DNA from: Synergistales bacterium
GTDB lineage: Bacteria; Synergistota; Synergistia; Synergistales; JAFGMB01
DNA length: 64,000 bases
Direction: 5' to 3'
Assembly: GCA_963666205.1 (NCBI GenBank)
Contig: OY762654.1
Coordinates: 2,400,001-2,464,000, forward strand
Part shown: piece by piece, positions 14,602 to 28,983 of the stretch
How positions within the stretch are numbered: position 1 is the first letter of the stretch
How the letters are laid out: each line of letters begins with the position of its first letter
Position numbers and translations under genes: made by a program
The notes under the pieces: generated by a model
Database searches by the model: none
The model's input: only the letters and a program-made list of their open reading frames with translations
What the model was told of the DNA's origin: nothing

Positions 14602-17600
14602 TTACATTGTGTCCCAATGAAGGGGGCATTTGTTTCTGAAGGGACAGGCGTTGCATTTTCCCAGTTCAGGTTCAAAAGGACCATTTGCGGCCTTTTGTGC
14701 GCTTCGTCGGATATCTTCCTCTATTTCTTCCATGCCTCCTCCGGGCATAGCGATCCTTTCAGTTTCGATCCCTTCCCGGAGGTGGATCAGTCTCAGGTCT
14801 ACAGGCAGATCCCTATCCCTCAAAGCGTGATATGCTGTCCAGCCGTAGAAGAGCAGCTGACTGGTATAAAGTTCCTCTGGAGCCTTTTCCTGGGCAGTTA
14901 TCTTGTAATCCCTGATATGAATTATATTGTCCTTTTCCCACATGAGATCCATGGCACCGGTGAGTAGGGGACCATGGTCCATCCTGATCCGAAAAGGCAG
15001 TTCCCGATTTAATACTCCCTGGCAGAGGAGGTCTTTTAAAGTTCTTCCTGTTTCGGATACTGAAAGGTCCCTCAGCCATTTTCGAAGGGTCTCCCTGCTG
15101 TCCGGCTTTTTCCACTCCGGCAGAATATAGACAGGTATCCCGGTTTCAACACTGTTGTGTCCCATTACTGTCAAAGGCAGGTAGTTTTCCAGCCCATCCT
15201 CTGACAGGTCCCATTTCTGGAGTATCCAATGGGCAAGGTTCCCCAGATCAGACCCTCCCGGACCATCTGCTCCAGGGAGTTCCCACTTGAGATCCCTTCC
15301 CTGACGGTGTCTCATCCTCCATGCCAGAGGGCAGAATTTAAAGAGACTGTAGGATGTGGCACTTAACCTGGCCAGATATTCCTTCCCCTTTACCGGTCCT
15401 TGCACAAAGGTTCTTTCTTTCTGTTCAGAAACTCTGATATTTTGTTTTTTAGCTGTTTTTACCCTGTCTGTGGCAAGGGGAAGATCCGGAAAGATCTTTT
15501 CCCATATCATTGACAGCCATGTACCATCTCGCGGTTCTGGCTTTTCTCCGTCCTTTGCTTCCAGGGTTGCGCAAAGGAACAGAGAATCCCTTGCCCTTGT
15601 GGCGGCGACGTAGAACAGGCGCTGCCATTCTTCCAGCTGTTCCTGTTTTTCCATCATTGCCGCGAGTACAGGAGAAGACGGGGTATCCTTGTTATCAGAT
15701 GCGATCCCATCGGGGTATCTGGAAGGAGTGACGCCAAGAATTGCCGATGGATCAAGACTGGTTCCGTGACTTCTTTTTCCAGGGAAATACTCCATTCCCA
15801 TTATTGCCAGAACGGGGAATTCGAGTCCCTTCGAAGCATGGACTGTCATTATCCTGACAACATCATCCTGTTCCCCTGTGAAGTCGGCATCTTCCATGGC
15901 TATACCTCTTCCCATGGATCCGCGAAGGTACTCGGAACATCCTCGCAGATCATTGCCCATAGCACTTTCATATTCCCTGCTGATATCTACGGCCTTCCGA
16001 AGATTCGCAGCTGCTTTCTTCCTTTTCCACGCGGGGAAAGCCTTAAGCGTATCAGCTCTTGAAAGTATAATGGAAAATACCCTTGAAACACCCTCCAGTG
16101 TGGCTATCCGTCTCCATCCTTCCATCTCCTGGAAAAGAGAGGAATTCACGTTCTGCAGGATCTCTGCGAGATCTTTTCCAGTATTTCTCTTCTCTTCAAG
16201 AAGCTTTCCAGTCTTCTCAAGGGAGAGACCTGAAAAGGGTGATGAAAGAAAGGATGTGAGGGCTGTCTGATCCCTTTTGTCAGCCAGATAATCGACCAGG
16301 GAAAGGAGGTCCTGAACCTCACTTCGGGAATAATAGCCCAGGCTGCTCTCAAAATAGCAGGGAATGGACAGGTCTTCTATGAAGGCTCTTTCAAGGGCAC
16401 TGTACTGGTTTCTTGTCGGCACGAGTATAGCCATATCCCTCCACTGGAGAGGTCTCAGCCCTTCTTCTTTTTTATCCCAGATAAGAGTGCCCTTTTCCCT
16501 TAGTTGCATTAATTCCCGCCCCAGCCTCCTGGCAAGATCAAGTCTCTTCTCCTCAGCAGGTGTTCTTTCTTTCCCTGATGTATAGAATTCAACAAGGACC
16601 TTGAGGGGAGGGGTCTGGATTTCCTGCCTTCTGCTGTGCCAATCCATGGTAACAGGGCTTTGAAGATGCTCATAAGGATGGATCAGGTCTCTTCCCAGGC
16701 CCTTTTCCCATATTTTGCCGAAGATAGAGTTTATACCCTCCAGAACTTTCCCGCTGCTACGGAAACTGACATCAAGGTTTATGTATTTTCCCTTTCCTTG
16801 TAGAGCTTTCTGTATATATTCCAGGAAAATGGAAGGTTCAGCATGCCGGAACCGGTAGATGGACTGTTTCAGATCGCCCACCAGGAACATGGCAGGAGAA
16901 CCCCTTTCCCAAATGGTCCTGAGAAGGATCTCCTGAAGTCTGTTGGTATCCTGAAATTCGTCAACAAGGACTTCCCGGAACCTCTCTGACATACTCCCGG
17001 CCTGAAGGGCTTCAATGGATCTGGAGATCATATCGTCGAAGGAGATCAGACTCTTCTTTCTCTTGTATTCTTCCCAGATCTGCCATAAAAGAGATGAAAC
17101 CTCCAGCAGTGTTTCTCTGGTCTGCCTGTCTCTTCCGTCAATGCCATGAACCAGGACTTCGCATAATCTGATATGTTCGGAGTATTGATTACGGAACTCT
17201 GATACTGAGCATTCCAGCTCCTGTGCTATTTCCGCTGCCGCTTTTCCGGAAGCGCCCTTCAGAGCTTCCATAAGATCGAGGAAAAACAGAGGCAGATCTT
17301 CCCTTTGTGGTTTTTCCTCTCCCCATTTTGAGTGAACACCCCTGAGTTTCTCTGCCAGTTTAGTCTTGCTTTCAAGGAGTATGGGCAGTCCAGGAATCAG
17401 TCCCCCGGAACCTGACCAGCGTTGCCATTCTTCTTCAAAAACAGTTGAGTATATCTCCCTGACTCTGGCCAGGGCTTCCTGGTCCCTCTTCTCCAGATCT
17501 TTGGAGAAAGACCAGAGGTCCCCGGGGTCTTGTCCTCGACTTGCCCATAGGGATAATATCCCCCTTGTCAGTCCGGTGATGCCCCTTGCTCCATAGCTGT

Positions 17601-18183
17601 TTACCAGGTCTGTCAGAAAGGGTTTATCGAATATCTGTTCCTCTCTGGATGTCCATATTCCTCTGACTCTTTTTTTAAACCAGCGGTTATCCAGAATGTC
17701 CAGTTGTTTTTCTACTTCCCGCCAGAGTTCTTCTTCCTCCGGGGTGCTCACTGGTCTTGATTCAGGGTCAAGTTCCAGGGACAGTCCCCCTTCCCTTATC
17801 ATCCTCAGGGAAAAGGAATGAAGGGTGGAAATAAAAGCTTCGTCCATTTCTTCCCGGGCTTCTTCAAGGAGAGGGGACAGTGATGGCACTAGAGAGGCCA
17901 CCTTTCCCAGGAGATCCCTTATCCTGTCTTTCATTTCCAGAGCGGCTTTTTCGGTAAAAGTAAGGGTCAGTATCTCCTTTACCCTTGCCTTTCCTGTGGC
18001 GATTGCCCATACAAAACGCCAGGCCAGGGTCCATGTTTTCCCAGTTCCTGCCCCCGCACTTACTACCACCAGAGGATCTTCAGCCATGATTGCTTCCCTC
18101 TGTCCAGGAAGGGTGGTCTTTTCCAGCAGGACTGTAAGTTCCTCTATGCCTGTAACTGTTTTTTCCCTGTCAGTCCCTATCAT
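14602..18183 (-). CDS. addA: AddA-like UvrD-family helicase with C-terminal PD-(D/E)XK nuclease
   Basis: Motifs SAGAGTGKT, LTFTEKAA, VDEFQD, VGDLKQSIYRFR, MTVHASKGLEF, FYVAATRA and DYK. Start placed at MIGTDREK, overlapping the addB stop. Confidence 0.88.
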   Translation of the reverse strand: MIGTDREKTVTGIEELTVLLEKTTLPGQREAIMAEDPLVVVSAGAGTGKTWTLAWRFVWAIATGKARVKEILTLTFTEKAALEMKDRIRDLLGKVASLVPSLSPLLEEAREEMDEAFISTLHSFSLRMIREGGLSLELDPESRPVSTPEEEELWREVEKQLDILDNRWFKKRVRGIWTSREEQIFDKPFLTDLVNSYGARGITGLTRGILSLWASRGQDPGDLWSFSKDLEKRDQEALARVREIYSTVFEEEWQRWSGSGGLIPGLPILLESKTKLAEKLRGVHSKWGEEKPQREDLPLFFLDLMEALKGASGKAAAEIAQELECSVSEFRNQYSEHIRLCEVLVHGIDGRDRQTRETLLEVSSLLWQIWEEYKRKKSLISFDDMISRSIEALQAGSMSERFREVLVDEFQDTNRLQEILLRTIWERGSPAMFLVGDLKQSIYRFRHAEPSIFLEYIQKALQGKGKYINLDVSFRSSGKVLEGINSIFGKIWEKGLGRDLIHPYEHLQSPVTMDWHSRRQEIQTPPLKVLVEFYTSGKERTPAEEKRLDLARRLGRELMQLREKGTLIWDKKEEGLRPLQWRDMAILVPTRNQYSALERAFIEDLSIPCYFESSLGYYSRSEVQDLLSLVDYLADKRDQTALTSFLSSPFSGLSLEKTGKLLEEKRNTGKDLAEILQNVNSSLFQEMEGWRRIATLEGVSRVFSIILSRADTLKAFPAWKRKKAAANLRKAVDISREYESAMGNDLRGCSEYLRGSMGRGIAMEDADFTGEQDDVVRIMTVHASKGLEFPVLAIMGMEYFPGKRSHGTSLDPSAILGVTPSRYPDGIASDNKDTPSSPVLAAMMEKQEQLEEWQRLFYVAATRARDSLFLCATLEAKDGEKPEPRDGTWLSMIWEKIFPDLPLATDRVKTAKKQNIRVSEQKERTFVQGPVKGKEYLARLSATSYSLFKFCPLAWRMRHRQGRDLKWELPGADGPGGSDLGNLAHWILQKWDLSEDGLENYLPLTVMGHNSVETGIPVYILPEWKKPDSRETLRKWLRDLSVSETGRTLKDLLCQGVLNRELPFRIRMDHGPLLTGAMDLMWEKDNIIHIRDYKITAQEKAPEELYTSQLLFYGWTAYHALRDRDLPVDLRLIHLREGIETERIAMPGGGMEEIEEDIRRSAQKAANGPFEPELGKCNACPFRNKCPLHWDTM

Positions 18184-21097
18184 CCTGGATTTCTCCTTCC
18201 GGGTTTTCCTGTCTTCTGCATATTCCTGAATAGGGGCAGTACCTGCAGGATTCCGAGTTATAATCGGGAATGAATTCCCCCCTCTTGATGTGACCTGCCA
18301 TTTCACCAAGATGATATTCGGCTTTCTCCAGTTTTTCGTCCAGGGATATGCCCTTCTTTGAAAGGCCCAGGTATTCAGCTGTTGGAACATCACAGGAGGA
18401 TCCTGTTATTCTTCCGTCTGCGTGACAGAGATAGCCGTAACCGCATATTCCCGCAAAAGGACTATTACTGGTATGAGAAGCTTTTTTGAGGAGCAGACAG
18501 TAGGCTGCCAGTTGCATGCTATTCCTGAATCGGGAACTGTTGCCGCTTTTGTAGTCTATGACCACAGCACTGCCTTCATCAAGGATGTCCAGCCTGTCAA
18601 AACGTCCTCTGAAAATTACTCCATCTATCTCCAGATCGGGGAGCATCCCTTCCAGGACAGGAGGGAAATCCTTGTTTCGGATGGAACTCCCTTCCATCCG
18701 GTCCTGAAGATCACCAGCCTTGGAAAGATCTGCTTCAAATCTTTTCAGATGCCTTCTCAGGGATGGGTCGGAGAGAAGTTCCGGATAACATTTCTTCAAA
18801 GATCCTTCCAGGAAAGTTCTGGAAATATATTGAAGTGATCCGCCCTCATCGACGTATTTTCTCCAGGTGGCTTCCCATATCCTATGGAGAGCTATCCCTG
18901 ATTTTATTCTGTCAAAACCGATGCGGGTCTTTTCTTCCATCCTTAATATATGCCTGCAGTAATATAGGAAAGGACAGGCTATCCAGTCATCTATGGAACT
19001 GAGGTGTACTATCCAGGCTTTTTCTTCAGGTTCTATCCTTGTGAGGGGAAGGATACGTTCCTTAATTGATGATGGATAATATCCCAGTTCTCCTACTTCA
19101 ATTCCCTTCACATGTATTTCGGTGTCAAGGGGGAGAATACGGTTCAGGCCTCTGGTTATCAGCTTCCCATTCCCGGCTGTATTTGAAGCCCAGAAGCTAT
19201 TCCCTTTTTCAAGAGACCTTTCCAGAAATGGTGAAGCTGAGAGCGGTCTTCCTGAAGTATCGGTTTCAGGCCATGAAAGAAGGCTGAGATCCTCTCCACA
19301 AGCAATTATTCTTCGGAAAAGGTACTCTTTCTGCCTTCTCAGTTCAGGAACAAGGGGCAAATGGCCTTCCCCAAGGTCCAGGCCGGAATGAAGAGCCTCT
19401 TTTCTCGAATCGGGAAGAAGATCGGTCTCTCTCAGAGTTCCAGGCCAGTTTCCTGTAGAAACACCGGCAAATATCCACAACCTGTTTCTGGCCAGGACTG
19501 GAGGAGTTCCGGGATACACTTCTATGGAATCGCCTCTCGAAGGGGCATTCCAGATTGTGGATGTTTCAGCCCATCTGCGGAGGAATTCGAAGGCCTTGCT
19601 ACCCGTAAGGATATCTTTGCCTGCAGGGCCTATATTTTCAACAAGTTCGCTTATGGAAACCAGCTTTTCTTCTGTTTCCCTGATAGCGGCATTCATTCTT
19701 CTGCAGGTTTCATCAAGTTCCTGCATTTTCATAACGTAGGAGGAGATCTTCATTTCCGATCCCGTATCAATGAATAGATCTCTCAGAGCCTTCAGTATTT
19801 CTGCTGCAGTTCCACCTTCACTAAGGGTTTTGCTGAAAGCCTTAATGGCTCCGAAAGAAACTGTAATCAAGGGAGTATCCAGGGAAGAAATGAAATTGCA
19901 CCATTCATCTTCTCCAGATGGATTTACTGCCTCAAATCTTTCAACCGGGAAATAATCTCCACAGAAAAAGGGTTCCTGAAGAAGTCTGGCTGTTTTACTG
20001 GAGGGCCAGTCATTCTGGAAAGATTCCCAGACTCTCCCCGCGAGTTCCCAGAGAGGGGTCCGGGAAACAGTCAGACCCTCCAGAAGTACAAAGGGAAGTT
20101 CATATCTTCCGAAAACTTCCTCAACCTGCCGGATGTACTCGGGAGGGCAGGTCATGGAAATATATCCCCAGCCGGGAAAGGAAGTCCCGCTATAATTCTG
20201 GAGTTCTCCAGTGGAATTACTCCATAGAACCAGTTCTCTTGCAATTGTCTCGATTTCCAGTCTTCTGTCCCCACCTTGAATGGGAATAACTTCCAGGGGA
20301 GAGTTATCGCTGATGTTTACTGTTTTTTCTCCCTCGAACTGACTCAACACAGTGTAGGCTTTTTTCACTCCTGTCTGGGGTGTGAATATGACAAGGTCTC
20401 CGGCCTTTTGAGAAAGGGTCCTTACCAGCTTCAGCTGACTGTGGTTAAAACTCAGGAACCCAGTGAAGATGAAGGATCTCCTTTTTATCCATTCAGACCC
20501 TTCAGGTCCTGTGTCTATGATATTCCTTGTCAGTGTGGCTATCTGAGCACTGTCACAGAGTCCATGTCCTTTCAGATAGTTGAAATAGAGATGATAAGCT
20601 TTGCACAGGATCCCTTCCGGTTCTTTGTCGTGTTCGCATTTACCCTCGCCGTTACAACAGGAACATCCCATTATTTCTGAAAGGCTGGCCGGCTCAATTT
20701 CTTCCCGCATAAGATCGCGGAGAGAGTCTCCCAGTCGTGAGGCAAAACCCTTCTGCTTTATCCCTGGAAGATGGCACGAAAAATCTTCATCTTTCAGCAT
20801 ATTGTCCAGGATGTGTTGAATGATAAGCCAGTGGTCTGGAGGATCTATCTGTCTCCGGTGGTAGGGAGTTGATGGAACGCCATTCTGTATTTCCCTGAAA
20901 AGGTCTCCCCAACGCCATATATGGGGAAAAGGGATACCTATTCCTCCCTTTTCGAGTAACATTTCCTTGAGTAGTTCCATGTCTGCTCTTGTAGGAACCA
21001 CGAAGATCTTTTCAGAGGTTGCCCCCTGACCTGTCCAGGCTTGATGGTTCAACTCTTCAGATAATTCCGAGATCCTGCGATAAGTAAAGATATGCAT
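18170..21097 (-). CDS. addB: AddB-like subunit: degenerate helicase plus PD-(D/E)XK nuclease
   Basis: C-terminal CPF..., RGRFDRLD, IDYKSG, QLAAY and CRYCPYSGIC; lies directly upstream of the addA-like gene. Confidence 0.82.
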   Translation of the reverse strand: MHIFTYRRISELSEELNHQAWTGQGATSEKIFVVPTRADMELLKEMLLEKGGIGIPFPHIWRWGDLFREIQNGVPSTPYHRRQIDPPDHWLIIQHILDNMLKDEDFSCHLPGIKQKGFASRLGDSLRDLMREEIEPASLSEIMGCSCCNGEGKCEHDKEPEGILCKAYHLYFNYLKGHGLCDSAQIATLTRNIIDTGPEGSEWIKRRSFIFTGFLSFNHSQLKLVRTLSQKAGDLVIFTPQTGVKKAYTVLSQFEGEKTVNISDNSPLEVIPIQGGDRRLEIETIARELVLWSNSTGELQNYSGTSFPGWGYISMTCPPEYIRQVEEVFGRYELPFVLLEGLTVSRTPLWELAGRVWESFQNDWPSSKTARLLQEPFFCGDYFPVERFEAVNPSGEDEWCNFISSLDTPLITVSFGAIKAFSKTLSEGGTAAEILKALRDLFIDTGSEMKISSYVMKMQELDETCRRMNAAIRETEEKLVSISELVENIGPAGKDILTGSKAFEFLRRWAETSTIWNAPSRGDSIEVYPGTPPVLARNRLWIFAGVSTGNWPGTLRETDLLPDSRKEALHSGLDLGEGHLPLVPELRRQKEYLFRRIIACGEDLSLLSWPETDTSGRPLSASPFLERSLEKGNSFWASNTAGNGKLITRGLNRILPLDTEIHVKGIEVGELGYYPSSIKERILPLTRIEPEEKAWIVHLSSIDDWIACPFLYYCRHILRMEEKTRIGFDRIKSGIALHRIWEATWRKYVDEGGSLQYISRTFLEGSLKKCYPELLSDPSLRRHLKRFEADLSKAGDLQDRMEGSSIRNKDFPPVLEGMLPDLEIDGVIFRGRFDRLDILDEGSAVVIDYKSGNSSRFRNSMQLAAYCLLLKKASHTSNSPFAGICGYGYLCHADGRITGSSCDVPTAEYLGLSKKGISLDEKLEKAEYHLGEMAGHIKRGEFIPDYNSESCRYCPYSGICRRQENPEGEIQDDRD

Positions 21098-21253
21098 CCT
21101 ATCAGCTCCGTAGGTATTATTATTTCTATTCTACCAAGTACAGTAAAAAAGGTTTGGAAAATATTTATAATTTACAGGATTTGATATATACTAACGTTAA
21201 ATAGAAAAAGCTTTAGCATGCGATTGGGATAATCTTTATTTGAGGTGATGTGT

Positions 21254-21646
21254 ATGTCCAGACGTGCGGTCCTTGTTGTAGTTCTTGTTGTTCTGGTAGT
21301 AGCAGGTTTTACCTTAATAATCGGTAAAGGAACGTCCTGGTTCAATGCCTCCTCTGGTCCGAAACTTGAGATTGACGAAGATGCCCTGACCCAGATGAGC
21401 GGGAGTGGAAACGAGTTTTACGTAAGACCGGGCAGAGCAGGCTGAGGTGCTCCGCTGCAGGCGCTCGTGAAGCGTGGAAAACCCGGAAAAGATCCGGACA
21501 GTTATATTCAGTGTAATTCAGGAGACATATGTCTGTGGGTTCCAGGAGATCTTGAGTTCAGGGATAATCTGGTCCATGTGATCCTTGACAAGGGCCGGGG
21601 CAGGAAAATATTACTTGTAGAAACTGCACTTCTGTCTTCTCAGTAG
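21254..21646 (+). CDS. Putative selenoprotein 1 (130 aa, Sec at codon 64), HesB/IscA-like 'CC/Se motif'-type fold, N-terminal hydrophobic anchor
   Basis: The frame stays open for 66 codons after TGA 21443-21445 (GAPLQALVKRGKP...VETALLSSQ, TAG 21644-21646). The read-through part is homologous to the neighbouring gene, and a SECIS-like hairpin is present. Confidence 0.85.
21461..21475 (+). promoter_or_regulatory. Candidate bacterial SECIS of selenoprotein 1
   Basis: Stem GCGCU/AGCGU with loop CGUGA; 20 nt separate the UGA from the loop. Confidence 0.7.
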
Positions 21647-21749
21647 GACTTGAGTAAATTCAGTAGTTTTCCGGTTCTGTCATTAGCTTTTTAGTTGTAG
21701 AATGTTCTGAAGAGATTGAGTTTCTATTCTTTTGAAAGGAGAAATATGC

Positions 21750-22133
21750 ATGAAAAACAAACTGTTATTGTTGTTAGTTGCCGTGATAATTGTATTCACT
21801 ATGATCCTTCCTGCGATGAGTGCAGAGGATCTTGTGCTTGATATCACTTCTGTGGCAAGGGCTGAAATGGCTCCGCAGGGGTATGAGTGGTTCGTAAAAC
21901 CCGGTACATATCAGGGTTTCTGAGGAGAACCACTTTCCGCTCTGGTTCGGAGCGGCATGCCTGAAAAGCCGGAACAGTTCAACCTTCTGACTGAAGAGGA
22001 TATGAAGGTCTGGGTACCCAAGGGAATGACATTCCAGAACAATCTTGTAAAGATAATAGCCCTTCCCTATAAGGGGAAAAAAGTTTTAAAGGTTTCCACT
22101 GCCCAGACCATGGAGGGTGAAGGCTGCGATTAG
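21750..22133 (+). CDS. Putative selenoprotein 2 (127 aa, Sec at codon 58), paralogue of the preceding gene, with signal peptide
   Basis: AAAGGAG RBS; MKNKLLLLLVAVIIVFTMILPAMSA leader. The frame stays open for 69 codons after TGA 21921-21923 (GEPLSALVRSGMP...VSTAQTMEGEGCD, TAG 22131-22133), immediately followed by a terminator. Confidence 0.87.
21937..21955 (+). promoter_or_regulatory. Candidate bacterial SECIS of selenoprotein 2
   Basis: Stem CCGCUCU/GGAGCGG with loop GGUUC; 20 nt separate the UGA from the loop. Confidence 0.75.
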
Positions 22134-22142
22134 TGTGTCAGT

Positions 22143-22182
22143 AATGAAAAGGGGCGGGTCTTCTGACTCGCCCCTTTTCATT
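22143..22182 (+). terminator. Intrinsic terminator closing the two-gene selenoprotein unit
   Basis: 18-bp stem AATGAAAAGGGGCGGGTC-ttct-GACTCGCCCCTTTTCATT, 9 nt after TAG 22133. Confidence 0.85.
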
Positions 22183-22272
22183 CTGATGTAACAGGAAATA
22201 TTTCTTTTCATTTTCATATAGTTGGATCCCTATTATAATGAGGCGATAATTAATTTAAAGGCGGTGTGCTGT

Positions 22273-23040
22273 TTGAAATATCTGAGAGCAAAGATCAGGG
22301 GAGAATTAGTGGAAGGTATCACCGAGGGCTTGACTAGTGTTAGAGAGATAAAGGGTAATGTTTTTTCAGATTATGAATTTTCGGGAAGAGATTTTCTTCT
22401 CTCTGATGTAGAAAAGTTTCTTATCCCTGTTAACCCTTCTAAAATAGTTGCGGTTGGTCTTAATTACAGGGCTCATGCTGAAGAAACGGGTATGAAAATA
22501 CCTGATGAACCCCTCCTTTTCCTTAAACCGCCAAGCTCTGCCATAGCTCATGGTGAGTCGATTGTCTATCCTCCACATATGACGGAAAGGGTGGATTACG
22601 AGGCCGAGCTTGGTATTGTAATTGGGAAGACATGCCGAAACGTTCTTCCGGAGAAGGCAGAAGAGTATATCCTGGGTTATACCTGTTTCAATGACGTTAC
22701 TGCCAGGGATCTTCAGAGCAGGGATGGTCAATGGACCCGGTGTAAATCCTTTGATACCTTTGCACCCTTCGGACCGTGGGTTTCCATGGGAATCGATCCA
22801 TCGAACCTGGATATCAGACTGGTACAGAACGAAAAAGTTGTCCAGCATTCATCTACTTCGGATTTCATATTCAAGGTTCCCTTTATCGTAAGTTACATTT
22901 CCAGAATAATGACCCTGAATCCGGGAGATGTTATAGCCACCGGTACTCCATCAGGGATCGGTCCCGTTTCCATAGGAGATGTTCTCAAAGTCCAGATCGA
23001 AAATATAGGGGAACTTGTAAATACAGTGATTTCACCCTGA
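22273..23040 (+). CDS. Fumarylacetoacetate hydrolase family protein
   Basis: Motifs KIVAVGLNYRAH, VDYEAEL, NDVTARDLQ, KSFDTF and ATGTPSG. TTG start at 22273 assumed. Confidence 0.92.
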   Translation: MKYLRAKIRGELVEGITEGLTSVREIKGNVFSDYEFSGRDFLLSDVEKFLIPVNPSKIVAVGLNYRAHAEETGMKIPDEPLLFLKPPSSAIAHGESIVYPPHMTERVDYEAELGIVIGKTCRNVLPEKAEEYILGYTCFNDVTARDLQSRDGQWTRCKSFDTFAPFGPWVSMGIDPSNLDIRLVQNEKVVQHSSTSDFIFKVPFIVSYISRIMTLNPGDVIATGTPSGIGPVSIGDVLKVQIENIGELVNTVISP

Positions 23041-23094
23041 TCTCGATATATTTATCACGAAAAAGGAAAGCCATAAACCAGAGGAGGGAAGGCA

Positions 23095-24993
23095 ATGAAG
23101 TCTTTGGGTGAAATTCTTCTCCGCAATTCGTCCTTTGAAGAAATAGTCATAGGCAATACAGCCATTGTAAGGGCAATGATAGAATCGGGAGTGAGGGTGG
23201 TTACAACCTATCCGGGTTCTCCAACTCCTGAAATCGCATCAGCGGTCCTTTCAATACCGCAAAAGGACCGCCCCTTCTATTTTGAATATTCAACCAACGA
23301 GAAAGTGGCAACTGAAGTGGCCTTCGGGGCTTCACTGAACGGGCATCTGACATGTGTGTTTTTCAAAAGCGTTGGCCTGAATGTTGCTGCTGACAGTTTT
23401 GTCCAGCTTGGACATATGGAACTTACGGGGGGAATGGTAATAGTACTCGGTGATGATCCGGGTGCAAATTCTTCCCAGAACGAACAGGATAACCGGCACT
23501 ATGCTCACATGACCTACACCCCCCTCTTTGAACCCGCTACACCAGCTGAAGCCTATAAAATGTTCATTGAGGCTGCCTCGATTTCGAAAAAGCGCAGAAT
23601 GCCTGTTATGGTAAGGATGACAACCCATGTCTGTCATGCTAAACAGAAAGTCCTTTTTTCACCCTGGAAGGCTGGAAAACACTGTGATATGCCCCGTTTC
23701 GATCCCGCCAATGGTCCCTACATACCCATCGCTAAGGCAGCGCTGGATATGAAAAAAAAGGCAATTGAAAAGCTCCGGAATTTTCAGGAATATGCGGAAA
23801 AATCTCCATCCAACGGCATTGATGACAATGGAAATCGGGCCAAAGGCATAATTACAGCTGGCCTTCCCTACCTTTCCATAATTGAAATCCTGGAGGATGT
23901 TTCTGAAAAACCCGATATCTTAAAACTCGGGCTGGTTCATCCCCTTCCAGGAGAAAGAATCGCCGGATTTTTAAGGGAACATGCCGAAATAATGATAATA
24001 GAGGAACTTGATGATCTTCTGGAAAGGGAGATCAAGTCCATAGCATATGAAAAAGGTATAAATACAAGGATCATAGGGAAAACATGTGATGAGGACTGGA
24101 TAGGAGAATATACTCCCGACAGGGTTGCTCCCATTATGGACCGTGTCTGGCCTGCAATGGGCATTTCTGTTGAAGATGTGTCCCATATCCCACTTGCTCC
24201 CAGACCTCCCCAGATGTGCCCCGGATGCGGCCATCGATCTGCCTTTCATGCCATAAAACAGGCCCTTTCGGAAAAAGATATAACTGTAGCTGATATAGGT
24301 TGTCATACCCTGGGTTTCCTCCCGCCATATAATATGGGACAGGTTCTGCTCAGTATGGGGCATTCAACGGGAACTGCATCAGGATTGTCTCTTTTCAATG
24401 ACCAGAGGAGGGTTGTCGCTTTTCTTGGCGATTCCACCCTCTTCCATGCAGGTATCCCTGGCATAATCAATGCCGTTTTCAACAGTCACAACCTGACCCT
24501 TGTCATAATGGAGAACGGTACTACAGCCATGACAGGGCATCAGAACCATCCTGGTTCCGGCGCAAATGCAAGGGGTCCAGTCATGGCCATATCCATTGAC
24601 CGGATGCTGGAGGGGCTTGGTGTTACAAGCATCAGAAGGATCGATACTTATAGCCAGGGAAAACTTACCAGTATGATTGAGGAAGCCTTGGCAGAAAAGG
24701 GTTTCAGCGTGGTCATAGCATCCCATCCATGTATGCTCAAGTTCACCAGGGAACAGCGCAGAAAACCGGGTTTTATCAAGAAAACTGTAGAGATCGACCA
24801 GGATAAATGTACCCTTGCCCGAAGCTGTGTTGCTGAGTTTGCATGCCCATCCTTTCAGAGATTGGACGATGGAACGATAAGGGTGAATCCCGAACTCTGT
24901 ATCGGTGATGCTTCGTGTATCCAGACCTGTCCGTCAAAGGCCATCGGGCTGAAAAAGCCTTCTGTTTCGCGAGAAGAGGGTGATACCGAATGA
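23095..24993 (+). CDS. iorA: Indolepyruvate:ferredoxin oxidoreductase alpha subunit
   Basis: Motifs YPGSPTPEI, STNEKVATE, GDDPGANSSQNEQD, CPGCGHR and GDSTLFH; C-terminal ferredoxin domain. Confidence 0.92.
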   Translation: MKSLGEILLRNSSFEEIVIGNTAIVRAMIESGVRVVTTYPGSPTPEIASAVLSIPQKDRPFYFEYSTNEKVATEVAFGASLNGHLTCVFFKSVGLNVAADSFVQLGHMELTGGMVIVLGDDPGANSSQNEQDNRHYAHMTYTPLFEPATPAEAYKMFIEAASISKKRRMPVMVRMTTHVCHAKQKVLFSPWKAGKHCDMPRFDPANGPYIPIAKAALDMKKKAIEKLRNFQEYAEKSPSNGIDDNGNRAKGIITAGLPYLSIIEILEDVSEKPDILKLGLVHPLPGERIAGFLREHAEIMIIEELDDLLEREIKSIAYEKGINTRIIGKTCDEDWIGEYTPDRVAPIMDRVWPAMGISVEDVSHIPLAPRPPQMCPGCGHRSAFHAIKQALSEKDITVADIGCHTLGFLPPYNMGQVLLSMGHSTGTASGLSLFNDQRRVVAFLGDSTLFHAGIPGIINAVFNSHNLTLVIMENGTTAMTGHQNHPGSGANARGPVMAISIDRMLEGLGVTSIRRIDTYSQGKLTSMIEEALAEKGFSVVIASHPCMLKFTREQRRKPGFIKKTVEIDQDKCTLARSCVAEFACPSFQRLDDGTIRVNPELCIGDASCIQTCPSKAIGLKKPSVSREEGDTE

Positions 24994-25565
24994 AAAGATT
25001 TGACATATACCTCACAGGAGTGGGAGGGCAGGGAATAGGCCTGCTGAGTGAAACTATTCTCAGGGCGGCTGATCACGGGAATATACCTGTCAGCGGAGTG
25101 GATACCCATGGTCTTGCGCAGAGAGGCGGCATGGTAGTATCCCATGTCCGCCTGGGAAGGACAATGACAACCCCTCTAATAAGAAGGGGCAGGGCTGATC
25201 TTGTCGTAGCCCTGGAAAGGACTGAGGCGTACCGGGCTCTTTACAGTCACGCAAAACCTGGAGGAACGCTGGTATATTACGATACCAGCTGGCAGACCCT
25301 GAGTGCCCGTCTGGGGAGAGAAGATGAGGTATCCAATTCTCTTCTTGAAAGGGAATGTCTGAAAAGAAAAGTGAACCTTCACGGGGTAAGGATTGACGAT
25401 CTTGAAGATTACAGGATGCAGAATATGGTCCTTCTGGGTAAAATAGCATCCCTTTCGCTTATTCCATACCTGGATAAGGAACATTATGTCGAAGCCATGA
25501 ATGACCTCATGACAGGTACAATCCTTGAAAAAAATCTGGAAGTTTTTCGAAAAATAGCCGGCTAA
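24990..25565 (+). CDS. iorB: Indolepyruvate:ferredoxin oxidoreductase beta subunit
   Basis: Motifs GVGGQG and HGLAQRGG; 4-nt overlap with iorA. Confidence 0.9.
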   Translation: MKRFDIYLTGVGGQGIGLLSETILRAADHGNIPVSGVDTHGLAQRGGMVVSHVRLGRTMTTPLIRRGRADLVVALERTEAYRALYSHAKPGGTLVYYDTSWQTLSARLGREDEVSNSLLERECLKRKVNLHGVRIDDLEDYRMQNMVLLGKIASLSLIPYLDKEHYVEAMNDLMTGTILEKNLEVFRKIAG

Positions 25566-25588
25566 AGATCTCGATTGATCTGATCCGG

Positions 25589-25611
25589 GGCGGTCTTCGG
25601 GCCGCCTTTTT
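25589..25611 (+). terminator. Intrinsic terminator after iorB
   Basis: GGCGGTC-TTCG-GGCCGCC followed by TTTTT. Confidence 0.8.
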
Positions 25612-25713
25612 CATGCCTGGGAGGTTGAGTCTGTTCTTACACTTTGCCTTTTTTCTGAATTTAGGGTAACATTCCCCAAACAGTAACCACAACCTTTGTA
25701 ACGGGGTGATCCT

Positions 25714-26340
25714 TTGATAAAAGCAGTACTTTTTGATTTCGATATGACCCTTGTAGACAGCAGTTTTGCCATCACTGAAGCAATGAACGCCATTGCAGAG
25801 GGGGAGGGCTTGCGGTTTCTCTCCAGGGAAGAGGTCCTTTCAGTGATAGGGCTGCCCATACATGAGTCATGGGAGAGGCTCTGGGGGCGTTTTGATCCAT
25901 CATGGGTAGACAGCTACAGAGCAACCTTCAGGGAGAAGGAGTATGCCGGGATCATACCCTTTCCCAACACCCTGTCCTTTCTTGAGCACCTTATGGAGAG
26001 GGAAATAGTTATGGGTGTCGCTTCAAACCGTTCAAAAGTGAGTGATGCAGTTGAAGCTGTGGGATTATCTCAATATTTCCGCTGTACCCTGGGAATCCTG
26101 GATGTGGATAAGGCCAAGCCCGAACCGGATATGATCCTTAAGGGAATGGAGATGCTTAATGTTTCTCCCGAAGAGACCATATATGTTGGTGACACTGAAG
26201 CCGATATGATATCCGCGAAGTCAGCAAATGTACGTGGAGTTGGAATGACCACAGGGAATTTTGACCATAGAGCGCTGACCAGTGCAGGGGCCTGGAAAAC
26301 CTTTTCAGACCTGGAGGAGGTACTGACCCTTTTTGAGTGA
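25714..26340 (+). CDS. HAD family hydrolase (phosphoglycolate phosphatase-like)
   Basis: Motifs FDFDMTLVDS, KPEPD and YVGD...D. Confidence 0.9.
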   Translation: MIKAVLFDFDMTLVDSSFAITEAMNAIAEGEGLRFLSREEVLSVIGLPIHESWERLWGRFDPSWVDSYRATFREKEYAGIIPFPNTLSFLEHLMEREIVMGVASNRSKVSDAVEAVGLSQYFRCTLGILDVDKAKPEPDMILKGMEMLNVSPEETIYVGDTEADMISAKSANVRGVGMTTGNFDHRALTSAGAWKTFSDLEEVLTLFE

Positions 26341-27150: not shown

Positions 27151-28983
27151 ATGAAATCCGGTAACAAAGAGCCTAACAGGCTCATAAACGAAAGATCCCC
27201 CTACCTCCTGCAGCATGCCCATAATCCGGTGGACTGGTACCCATGGGGAAAAGAAGCATTTCAGAAGGCCAGGGAGGAAGATAAACCGGTTTTTCTATCC
27301 ATAGGTTATTCTACATGTCACTGGTGCCATGTCATGGAAAGAGAATGTTTTGACCACCCTGAAGTAGCAGAACTTATGAACGATGTCTGTGTCTGTATCA
27401 AGGTGGACAGGGAGGAAAGGCCTGACCTGGATGGGAATTTTATGGCAGTCAGCCAGGTCATGAACAACAGCGGGGGCTGGCCCCTTAATGTTTTTCTGAC
27501 ACCCGATGGAAGACCTTTTTTTGCAGGAACGTACATACCAAGGGAAAGGAAAGGGCAAATACCAGGTATGATGGATATCTTTCCAAGGGTCAAATGGCTC
27601 TGGTCTACCCAGAGGGAACAGATCCTCCAGTCTGCCGAAGGCCTTGTGGAATCTCTCAAAAAGGGTTCTTCCCTGGAGCCCGGAGATATGCCTGATCGTG
27701 TAGTTATAGATAGCTGTTTTAAGGAACTGGAGAAAAATTTTGATGAAGAATGGGGAGGGTTCTTTTCTGCACCTAAATTCCCCATGCCTGGTATTCTCCT
27801 GTTCCTGCTTCAGTACTGGCAGAACTATGGTGATGTGAGATCCCTTGAAATGGTTGAAAAAACCTTAACCAGAATGAGCCTGGGAGGTATATATGATCAT
27901 CTGGGCGGCGGATTTCACCGGTATTCTACAGATGAAAAGTGGTTCCTGCCTCATTTTGAGAAGATGTTATATGACCAGGCTCTTCTCATGGTGATCTATA
28001 CCAGGGCCTTTGCAGTTACAGGAGACCCCCTTTTCAAAAGGACTCTGGAAGATATAGCCGGTTATGTATTGTCCGATATGACATCTCCAGAAGGTCCTTT
28101 TTACTCGGCTGAAGATGCCGATAGTGAAGGAGTAGAGGGGAAATTTTATACCTGGGAACAGGGTGAAGTAATCAGTGCTTTAGGGGAAGAGGGGGAGTTT
28201 TTTCTCGAAATATACAACGTCGAAAAGGGCGGGAATTTCGATGAAGAGAGCTCTGGTAAAAAAACGGGTTCCAATATCCTGTTCAGGGAGAAAAGATTTA
28301 CAGAAATAGCCACTCAGAAAAATATCCACGAAGAGGAGATCTGTAATCTTATTGACCGTAACAGGGCAGATCTTCTTAAAGTCCGTAATGAAAGGGTAAG
28401 ACCCTTTAAAGACGACAAGATCCTCACGGACTGGAACGGACTGATGATAGCCGCTTTTGCATATGCTGGAAGGATATTGGGTAATATCGATTATATTAAC
28501 AGGGCTGAGAAGGCTCTTGACTTCTTCCTGCGAAAAATGAAAACTCCCGAGGGCAAACTTTTTCATAGGTATAGGGATGGAGAAGCTGCTGTTGAAGCCT
28601 TTCTTGATGACTACGTTTTTATGGTCTGGGGAATAAATGAAATATTCAAGGCTACCCGGAAGGAAGAACTCCTTCTTGAGTCCTTAAAGTTTATGGATAC
28701 CATGACCGTTCTTTTCTGGGATAACGAAAAAGGAGGTTTCTATGCTACTTCCGAAGGCTCTGAGGACCTGTTCTTCAGGAGGAAAGAAGCCTATGACGGG
28801 GCTATTCTTTCAGCCAATTCCGTAGCCATGGATAATTTCATTGAACTGGCAAAGCTTACAGGTAAAAATGAATTTACAGAGATGGCCAGGGTCATAGCGA
28901 GAGCCTTTGGACAGCAGGTAAGGCTCCTGCCTTCCTCCCATTCTTATCTGCTTGCCTCGGTGATGAAAATGGAGCATATCTAA
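27151..28983 (+). CDS. YyaL/SSP411-family thioredoxin-domain protein (DUF255 plus six-hairpin domain)
   Basis: Motifs [48 protein letters not shown] and DDKILTDWN. Confidence 0.92.

Follow-up and report, generated by a model that had tools for sequence, protein, structure and literature searches.

The locus described here raises two questions: whether two adjacent reading frames that appear to end at TGA encode full-length selenoproteins, and what such proteins would do in the cell. The pair was found on the plus strand of a window of 64,000 nucleotides, the whole stretch of DNA analysed, from the complete genome of a Synergistales bacterium (G000). Gene 1 (21254..21646) encodes a predicted 130-residue selenoprotein with an IscA-like domain and without a conserved cysteine. 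Its in-frame TGA (21443..21445, Sec64, written U64) is followed by 66 codons and then TAG. Gene 2 (21750..22133) encodes a predicted 127-residue selenoprotein with a putative signal peptide of the cleavable type and an IscA-like domain, and its TGA (21921..21923, Sec58, written U58) is followed by 69 codons to TAG. Translation with selenocysteine bore out the original prediction that both frames run 66 to 69 codons past the TGA. Putative ribosome-binding sites, GAGGTG (21242-21247) and AAGGAG (21736-21741), were located upstream of gene 1 and gene 2, respectively.

BLASTP aligned the two proteins with 35 of 90 positions identical (39%, E 4e-20), and the two TGAs shared one column. The two proteins had been noted to align on both sides of the TGA, and this was the case; the earlier figure of 24 identities in the 61 positions after the TGA has to be corrected to 25/61, as counted from the BLASTP alignment. 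The Sec site reads RAGUGAP in gene 1 and QGFUGEP in gene 2, and neither Sec has a neighbouring Cys. This feature was called correctly for both genes, but it is not new for the CC/Se motif family, in which a cytoplasmic Synergistota protein of the GGGU type is listed as a known selenoprotein, the only entry so named in supplement file 1 of the deep-Sep study (PMC12013277). The codon of Cys126 in gene 2 (22125..22127) lies within a C-terminal GEGC, a tail retained in 5/5 gene-2 orthologues, and Cys126 is a candidate resolving partner of Sec58. Besides the source genome, the tandem pair was present in two others (G001 and G003), while a further genome (G002) carried the gene-2 orthologue only at the same locus. 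The proposal of an unannotated two-gene selenoprotein unit therefore holds, with the doubling limited to G000, G001 and G003; the tandem pair is not general within the family.

The source genome contains the machinery for selenocysteine insertion. A tRNA-Sec was found, together with selA, selB and selD at 564.7, 364 and 333.7 bits, each over its cut-off, so that all four of the genes proposed for confirmation, selA, selB, selC and selD, are present. The selD gene itself has an in-frame TGA. RF2 was also found, and UGA is thus otherwise a stop in this genome. With gene 2 as query, relatives were detected in 28 of 41 genomes, and a profile of 52 members found matches in 91 of the 201 genomes of the phylum. 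Homologues bearing the source names Acetomicrobium sp. and Synergistaceae suggest that the genome of the window belongs to Synergistota. The loci fetched, a subset of the profile matches from which rows below 22 bits were left out (removing 2 of 17 no-stop matches) and in which duplicates around the site were merged, came to 142 members. In this set, recovered with a profile that was built from TGA-bearing members and may favour TGA forms, the Sec column was TGA in 126, Cys in 8, Ser in 3, Arg in 2, and Asn, Thr and TAA in 1 each, with no Trp. Members with TGA at this one column come from no fewer than ten families in the phylum, and the protein is conserved before and after it.

These results agree with what had been expected of homologues, namely TGA or Cys at this column (134/142) and conservation on both sides of it, and with the Sec machinery they uphold recoding over pseudogenes. 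The opposing reading, that the TGA is a true stop leaving pseudogenes or short peptides, or that it is read as Trp, draws on what protein databases hold. A protein collection keeps the 58-residue tail of gene 2 and the cut relatives as separate proteins, and a word-index protein search returned only fragments cut at UGA (one hit, and four hits in a second search). Among the best 150 hits in a library of 1.84 billion proteins there were C-terminal fragments and full-length homologues, with Cys at the column in 81 and Trp in 13, and one exported member (G004) has TAA at the site. However, one of the 13 Trp entries was traced and proved letter-for-letter identical to a protein whose DNA reads TGA; its cluster consists mostly of forms cut at TGA, and this one entry is therefore an artefact of gene calling or translation table. 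Together with the presence of RF2 and the 126 members with TGA at one column, this leaves the stop or Trp reading largely refuted and extremely improbable. We regard it as close to certain that in both genes Sec would be inserted by SelB bound to a hairpin just 3' of the UGA.

A SECIS-like hairpin was located after each TGA. That of gene 2 (21937..21955) has a stem of 8 bp and the loop GUU, while that of gene 1 (21461..21475) is weak, with a 5-bp stem that includes one G-U pair and GU in the loop, and does not correspond to the minimum-energy fold of its 48-mer. The 48 nucleotides following the TGAs folded no better than shuffled sequences (z 0.26 and -0.45). A hairpin pattern with a stem from +16/18 to +32/34 relative to the TGA, GU in the loop and at least 4 of 5 core pairs was matched in 106/126 Sec members, a figure that is partly circular as the pattern was derived from 25 members of the same family, compared with 328 of 113,898 TGA trinucleotides genome-wide (0.29%). 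Non-Sec members matched in 2/15 cases, or 7/15 if a shift of one codon was allowed. Position +20, a synonymous third codon position, pairs with +30 in Watson-Crick fashion in 119 of 126 members (C-G 58, T-A 56, G-C 5). The mean was 55.7 and the maximum 72 in 2000 column shuffles, control column pairs gave 33-55, and the state of the pair changed about 8 times on the tree. This covariation is an independent sign of the predicted SECIS hairpin, apart from the family-derived pattern.

Several members depart from TGA at the Sec column. The idea that loss of Sec at this column follows loss of the Sec trait was rejected, as selA was present in 16/17 tested genomes with a no-stop member; it was also present in 18/21 tested genomes without the family. 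The exported member with TAA in place of TGA (L035, G004:C138:2459-2827, minus strand) retains the hairpin and both halves, and its TAA would reflect either recent loss of Sec or a mistake in the assembly. Tandem cytoplasmic paralogues with one Sec and one Cys copy were observed in two genomes (L102/L121 in G188 and L105 in G131); the Cys copies keep the hairpin, which suggests a recent change from Sec to Cys. In genus g14, members with Ser, Arg, Thr or Asn at the column (L109, L110, L112-L114, L117 and L118) occur in genomes that keep selA; in 6/7 a Cys follows within a few residues (VCR), and in 7/7 the tail is rich in Cys. In genus g4 the frame of three members (L017, L021 and L022) ends in GSC-TGA-FGG in 3/3, which may be a second, C-terminal Cys-Sec or, equally likely, a plain stop.

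The family and fold of the proteins were then compared with known groups. The only family match for gene 2 was NF041239, the CC/Se motif family (E 3.3e-5, 23.9 bits against a cut-off of 40), and gene 1 gave no family match at E 10. This family was matched by 50/52 aligned members, and a cytoplasmic paralogue in the source genome scored 44.4 bits, over the cut-off; Cys and Sec share one column across the homologous domain. In Pfam, no family was found for either protein, with weak matches to the hydrophobic N-termini only. AlphaFold2 models of the mature domains, with Cys put for Sec, reached pLDDT values of 87.5 for gene 1 and 89.9 for gene 2. By structural alignment the gene 1 model showed the IscA/SufA/DsrR fold (Z 6.8-6.9), and the gene 2 model matched SufA (Z 7.3) and IscA (Z 7.0) over 85-86 residues, values that are middling by the aligner's own note on Z below 8; the next unrelated row scored Z 2.2. 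The top 7 rows of the structural search were all of the IscA-type fold. Foldseek gave no match at E <= 0.001, the best being SufA at 0.015. The best PDB sequence match of the profile was E. coli IscA (E 0.87), with the Sec column on the Cys of TSGCSG. According to the models, both proteins have the IscA/HesB fold. They belong to the CC/Se motif lineage, and Sec is predicted to sit on the surface loop of the Cys that is the first Fe-S ligand of IscA. The HesB/IscA-like link drawn at the outset from the CC/Se pattern is thereby borne out.

The two proteins nevertheless differ from each of these groups. IscA-type carriers have three ligand cysteines in the arrangement Cys-X(n)-Cys-X-Cys, and this set was not found in the window proteins: conserved Cys is lacking in gene 1, and gene 2 has only the one in its tail. 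The predicted fold is common to them and to IscA/SufA/ErpA (PF01521) and DsrR (Z 6.3-7.3, rmsd 3.3-4.9, 85-94 residues), but identity in the structural alignments is only 8-13%, the C-terminal CxC ligands are missing or down to one Cys, and a putative export signal is added. With NF041239 they share homology across the domain and Cys or Sec at the same column; unlike its representatives, which are cytoplasmic and about 95-107 residues long among those examined, they score under the cut-off, lack both CC and CxxU in the active loop and carry a putative N-terminal export signal. The HesB-like selenoprotein (TIGR01911; NF038090, IscA_HesB_Se) belongs to the same fold superfamily, with Sec at the first IscA Cys and a Gly-rich stretch before it; its UxGP motif is absent from the window proteins, which have UGAP and UGEP instead, and the listed examples are without a signal peptide. 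NF038090 gave a weak match in 2/52 members and nothing in the source genome. The HesB-like selenoprotein has no assigned function (PMC11097638).

The putative export signal is the distinctive feature of the pair and was absent from the original prediction. In gene 1 a basic and hydrophobic N-terminal segment covering about residues 1-30 (21254..21343) would be a membrane anchor or a signal peptide judging from hydropathy, and in gene 2 the sequence pattern points to a signal peptide at residues 1-25 (21750..21824). The best mean hydropathy over 13 residues at the N-terminus was 3.7 and 3.4 for the two proteins, respectively. Gene 1 starts with SRRAVL, which resembles a twin-arginine signal without being a strict S/T-R-R-x-F; the G003 orthologue has KKK at this place, and tatC is present in the genome. 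The signal segment of gene 2 ends in VSA, VLA, ALA and AIA in four orthologues, before the mature domain. Across the 142 members, Sec was at residue 32-46 in 82 and at residue 50-75 in 60. These 60 extended members all have K/R within the first 8 residues, and an [AVS]xA site is present in 47/60; neither a lipobox nor a strict Tat motif was found in any of the 60. TGA is kept in 56/60. By simple rules, the pattern of a basic n-region, a hydrophobic h-region and AxA was seen in gene 2 and most of its clade, while gene 1 has the look of an uncleaved anchor. It is quite likely that both proteins gained export signals, gene 1 being probably membrane-anchored and gene 2 probably released to the periplasm.

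A FastTree phylogeny of 159 cores without the extension placed the extended forms in two clades, of 52 tips (support 0.987) and 12 tips (0.994). The 52-tip clade (clade A) holds both window genes, a third exported paralogue of the source genome and Cys forms, and is mostly Sec. One origin or two origins of the extended clades A and B would both be compatible with the tree.

The surroundings of the pair were examined for signs of a transcription unit and of functional partners. A promoter-like site with 9/12 consensus matches, a consensus match only, lies in the intergenic region divergent from addB (21164..21192). A terminator-like hairpin (22143..22182, -32.6 kcal/mol, z -8.1, 0/200 shuffles as good) would close the unit, in line with the original claim of a terminator only after the second TAG; a simple terminator scan listed no plus-strand terminator either after gene 2 or between the genes. 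In one RNA library (X1) a contig starts at 21211, and a contig covering 21899-22176 ends at 22176. The gene 1 TGA was the same in contigs of X1 and X4, and the gene 2 TGA was the same in the X1 contig 21899-22176, with 0 other letters in both cases. The gap between the genes was bridged by RNA-library contigs in 4/4 runs examined, from two marine-sediment studies. The identity of the TGAs in these contigs excludes a sequencing error and does not by itself prove one transcript. Depth in X1 was 97-141 for contigs over the unit compared with 11-24 for the listed neighbours, which is no measure of expression, as this stretch itself served to find the runs, genes cannot be ranked by contigs, and the libraries may contain DNA.

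The flanks (14602-21097 on the minus strand, and 22222-26340 and 27151-28983 on the plus strand) contain an addAB-like helicase-nuclease pair, a FAH-family hydrolase, IorAB and a HAD hydrolase, as well as a gene resembling the DUF255 thioredoxin-domain genes of related loci. Other families have the exported gene within the same gene order. In 11 of 20 wider loci examined in other families, addB adjoins the clade-A gene, as it does in the window, and HAD was found in a 12th; the adjacency to addB across families indicates that the clade-A gene is ancient and has kept its place. These neighbours (addB, the FAH-family hydrolase, Ior, HAD and DUF255) yielded no functional partner, and their conservation is positional only.

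Further candidate selenoprotein genes were observed in the same genome, two of them additional paralogues found by tblastn. One (G000:C1:578,108-578,425, L001/L055, TGA about 578,320) is a cytoplasmic paralogue over the NF041239 cut-off, with the same TGA column and a Cys tail, situated between rluA and two glutamate dehydrogenase genes. The other (G000:C1:1,991,790-1,992,184, L050, TGA about 1,992,010) has the same TGA column and a putative signal peptide. A membrane-anchored thioredoxin with TGA at UxxC (L185:1025-1435, in G000:C1 about 775,070-776,180) was found directly upstream of ccdA (L185:1435-2136), which is followed by a nitroreductase-family gene; the anchored thioredoxin may be another unannotated exported selenoprotein and is a candidate reductant. 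Two frames on the minus strand (G000:C1 about 1,272,171 and 1,272,818) have CAUP at the TGA and a hairpin after it, and they may be a tandem pair of rhodanese-like CxU selenoproteins. A looser genome-wide SECIS scan, which misses gene 1 and the anchored thioredoxin and, like all such scans, is not a selenoproteome, also returned two GrdB-like, an FdhA-like and the SelD TGAs.

What the exported selenol would do was considered next. The explanation that we favour, and hold somewhat short of probable, is a redox or scavenger role in the envelope. An exposed selenol would take up oxidising or electrophilic sulfur and oxygen species, such as polysulfide, disulfides and peroxide, and would then be re-reduced. 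In gene 2 resolution could proceed through a Sec58-Cys126 bond, and CcdA with the membrane-anchored UxxC thioredoxin would be a candidate reductant, the two genes being neighbours in the source genome. Such a resolving Cys is not shared by all: in 19/56 exported Sec members the mature part is free of Cys. Co-occurrence of ccdA was tried as support and was uninformative: ccdA was present in 31/38 genomes with a clade-A gene compared with 135/201 overall and in 1/11 genomes with a clade-B gene, and the distribution of CcdA does not follow that of the exported forms. A chain that leaves the cytoplasm unfolded would not bring a pre-loaded Fe-S cluster with it; for this reason, and because gene 1 lacks the second and third ligands of IscA and gene 2 retains a single tail Cys in their stead, delivery of Fe-S clusters outside the cytoplasm is unlikely.

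The same exported selenol might instead coordinate a soft metal or metalloid (Cu, Hg, As or Zn), in an envelope chaperone, sink or sensor. A single exposed Sec on the metal-ligand loop of the IscA fold and the many members without a resolving Cys would suit this role, the locus is present in marine-sediment RNA libraries, and the exported selenoproteins SaoB and SaoX have been proposed as metal binders (bioRxiv 10.1101/2022.07.06.499078). However, no metal transporter or resistance gene recurs beside the clade-A gene in 20 wider loci, and a CDF transporter was near one clade-B gene only, so that metal binding is possible but on the unlikely side. A different topology was also weighed, in which the hydrophobic N-terminus tethers a cytoplasmic domain to the inner membrane as an A-type Fe-S or iron carrier, like IscA, for membrane-near enzymes. 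The IscA/SufA fold, the mostly Cys-rich tails of the cytoplasmic paralogues (tail Cys in 50/70) and the Fe-S enzyme genes of Ior, often just downstream, are in keeping with such a carrier. The basic n-region, the one hydrophobic stretch and the [AVS]xA site (47/60) form the pattern of an exported protein instead, no conserved Cys in gene 1 and one in gene 2 compare poorly with three IscA ligands, and the unit has its own terminator-like hairpin; a tethered cytoplasmic carrier is accordingly unlikely. Nor do we give much weight to the proteins being envelope carriers or stores of selenium or sulfur (perselenide or persulfide shuttles, or a selenium reserve) rather than catalysts. There are several copies per genome, with 4 in the source genome, Sec is retained in 56/60 exported members, and DsrR, an IscA-like protein of sulfur oxidisers, ranks among the best matches to the fold; one Sec per chain would nonetheless make a poor store, and no gene of selenium or sulfur trafficking adjoins the pair.

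In the literature, 119 prokaryotic selenoprotein families have been compiled, including NF041239 (CxxU, predicted) and the HesB-like family (UxGP) in Table 1 of PMC13188914, whose family list does not name an exported IscA-like entry. The supplement of PMC13326102 gave no match; this paper and PMC1794560 served as background only. Export of Sec proteins has a precedent in SaoB, SaoX and SaoC of the SAO system, selenoproteins with signal peptides that have been put forward as extracytoplasmic metal binders (bioRxiv 10.1101/2022.07.06.499078). The SAO proteins differ from the window proteins in having unrelated folds, CU/CC motifs and a nine-gene operon, and no such operon occurs at the window locus. 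No description of exported IscA/HesB-like selenoproteins was found in the literature searched, and BSepDB, the NCBIfam model notes and Haft and Tolstoy 2025 could list some. The catalogued family and Sec without an adjacent Cys were already known; what is new is a subfamily with the IscA fold, distributed across Synergistota, that is predicted to be exported and retains Sec.

Standard gene callers break these genes in two at UGA, and as a result protein databases do not show the predicted exported subfamily at all. The known role of proteins with the IscA fold is that of cytoplasmic Fe-S carriers, and no function has been assigned to selenoproteins of the HesB-like and CC/Se groups. With Sec retained in 56/60 members, an exported branch, for which Fe-S delivery is implausible, suggests that this fold serves a different chemistry. 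The exported members are small, soluble and testable proteins, and natural Cys variants are available as controls. As a speculative proposal, to which we give limited credence, Synergistota may, probably on two occasions, have turned the Fe-S carrier fold of cytoplasmic IscA/HesB into an exported single-Sec relay for redox or for sulfur or metal in the envelope, with gene 1 anchored, gene 2 soluble and both recycled by CcdA and the anchored selenothioredoxin. If true, this envelope relay would be a function not described for the IscA/HesB fold.
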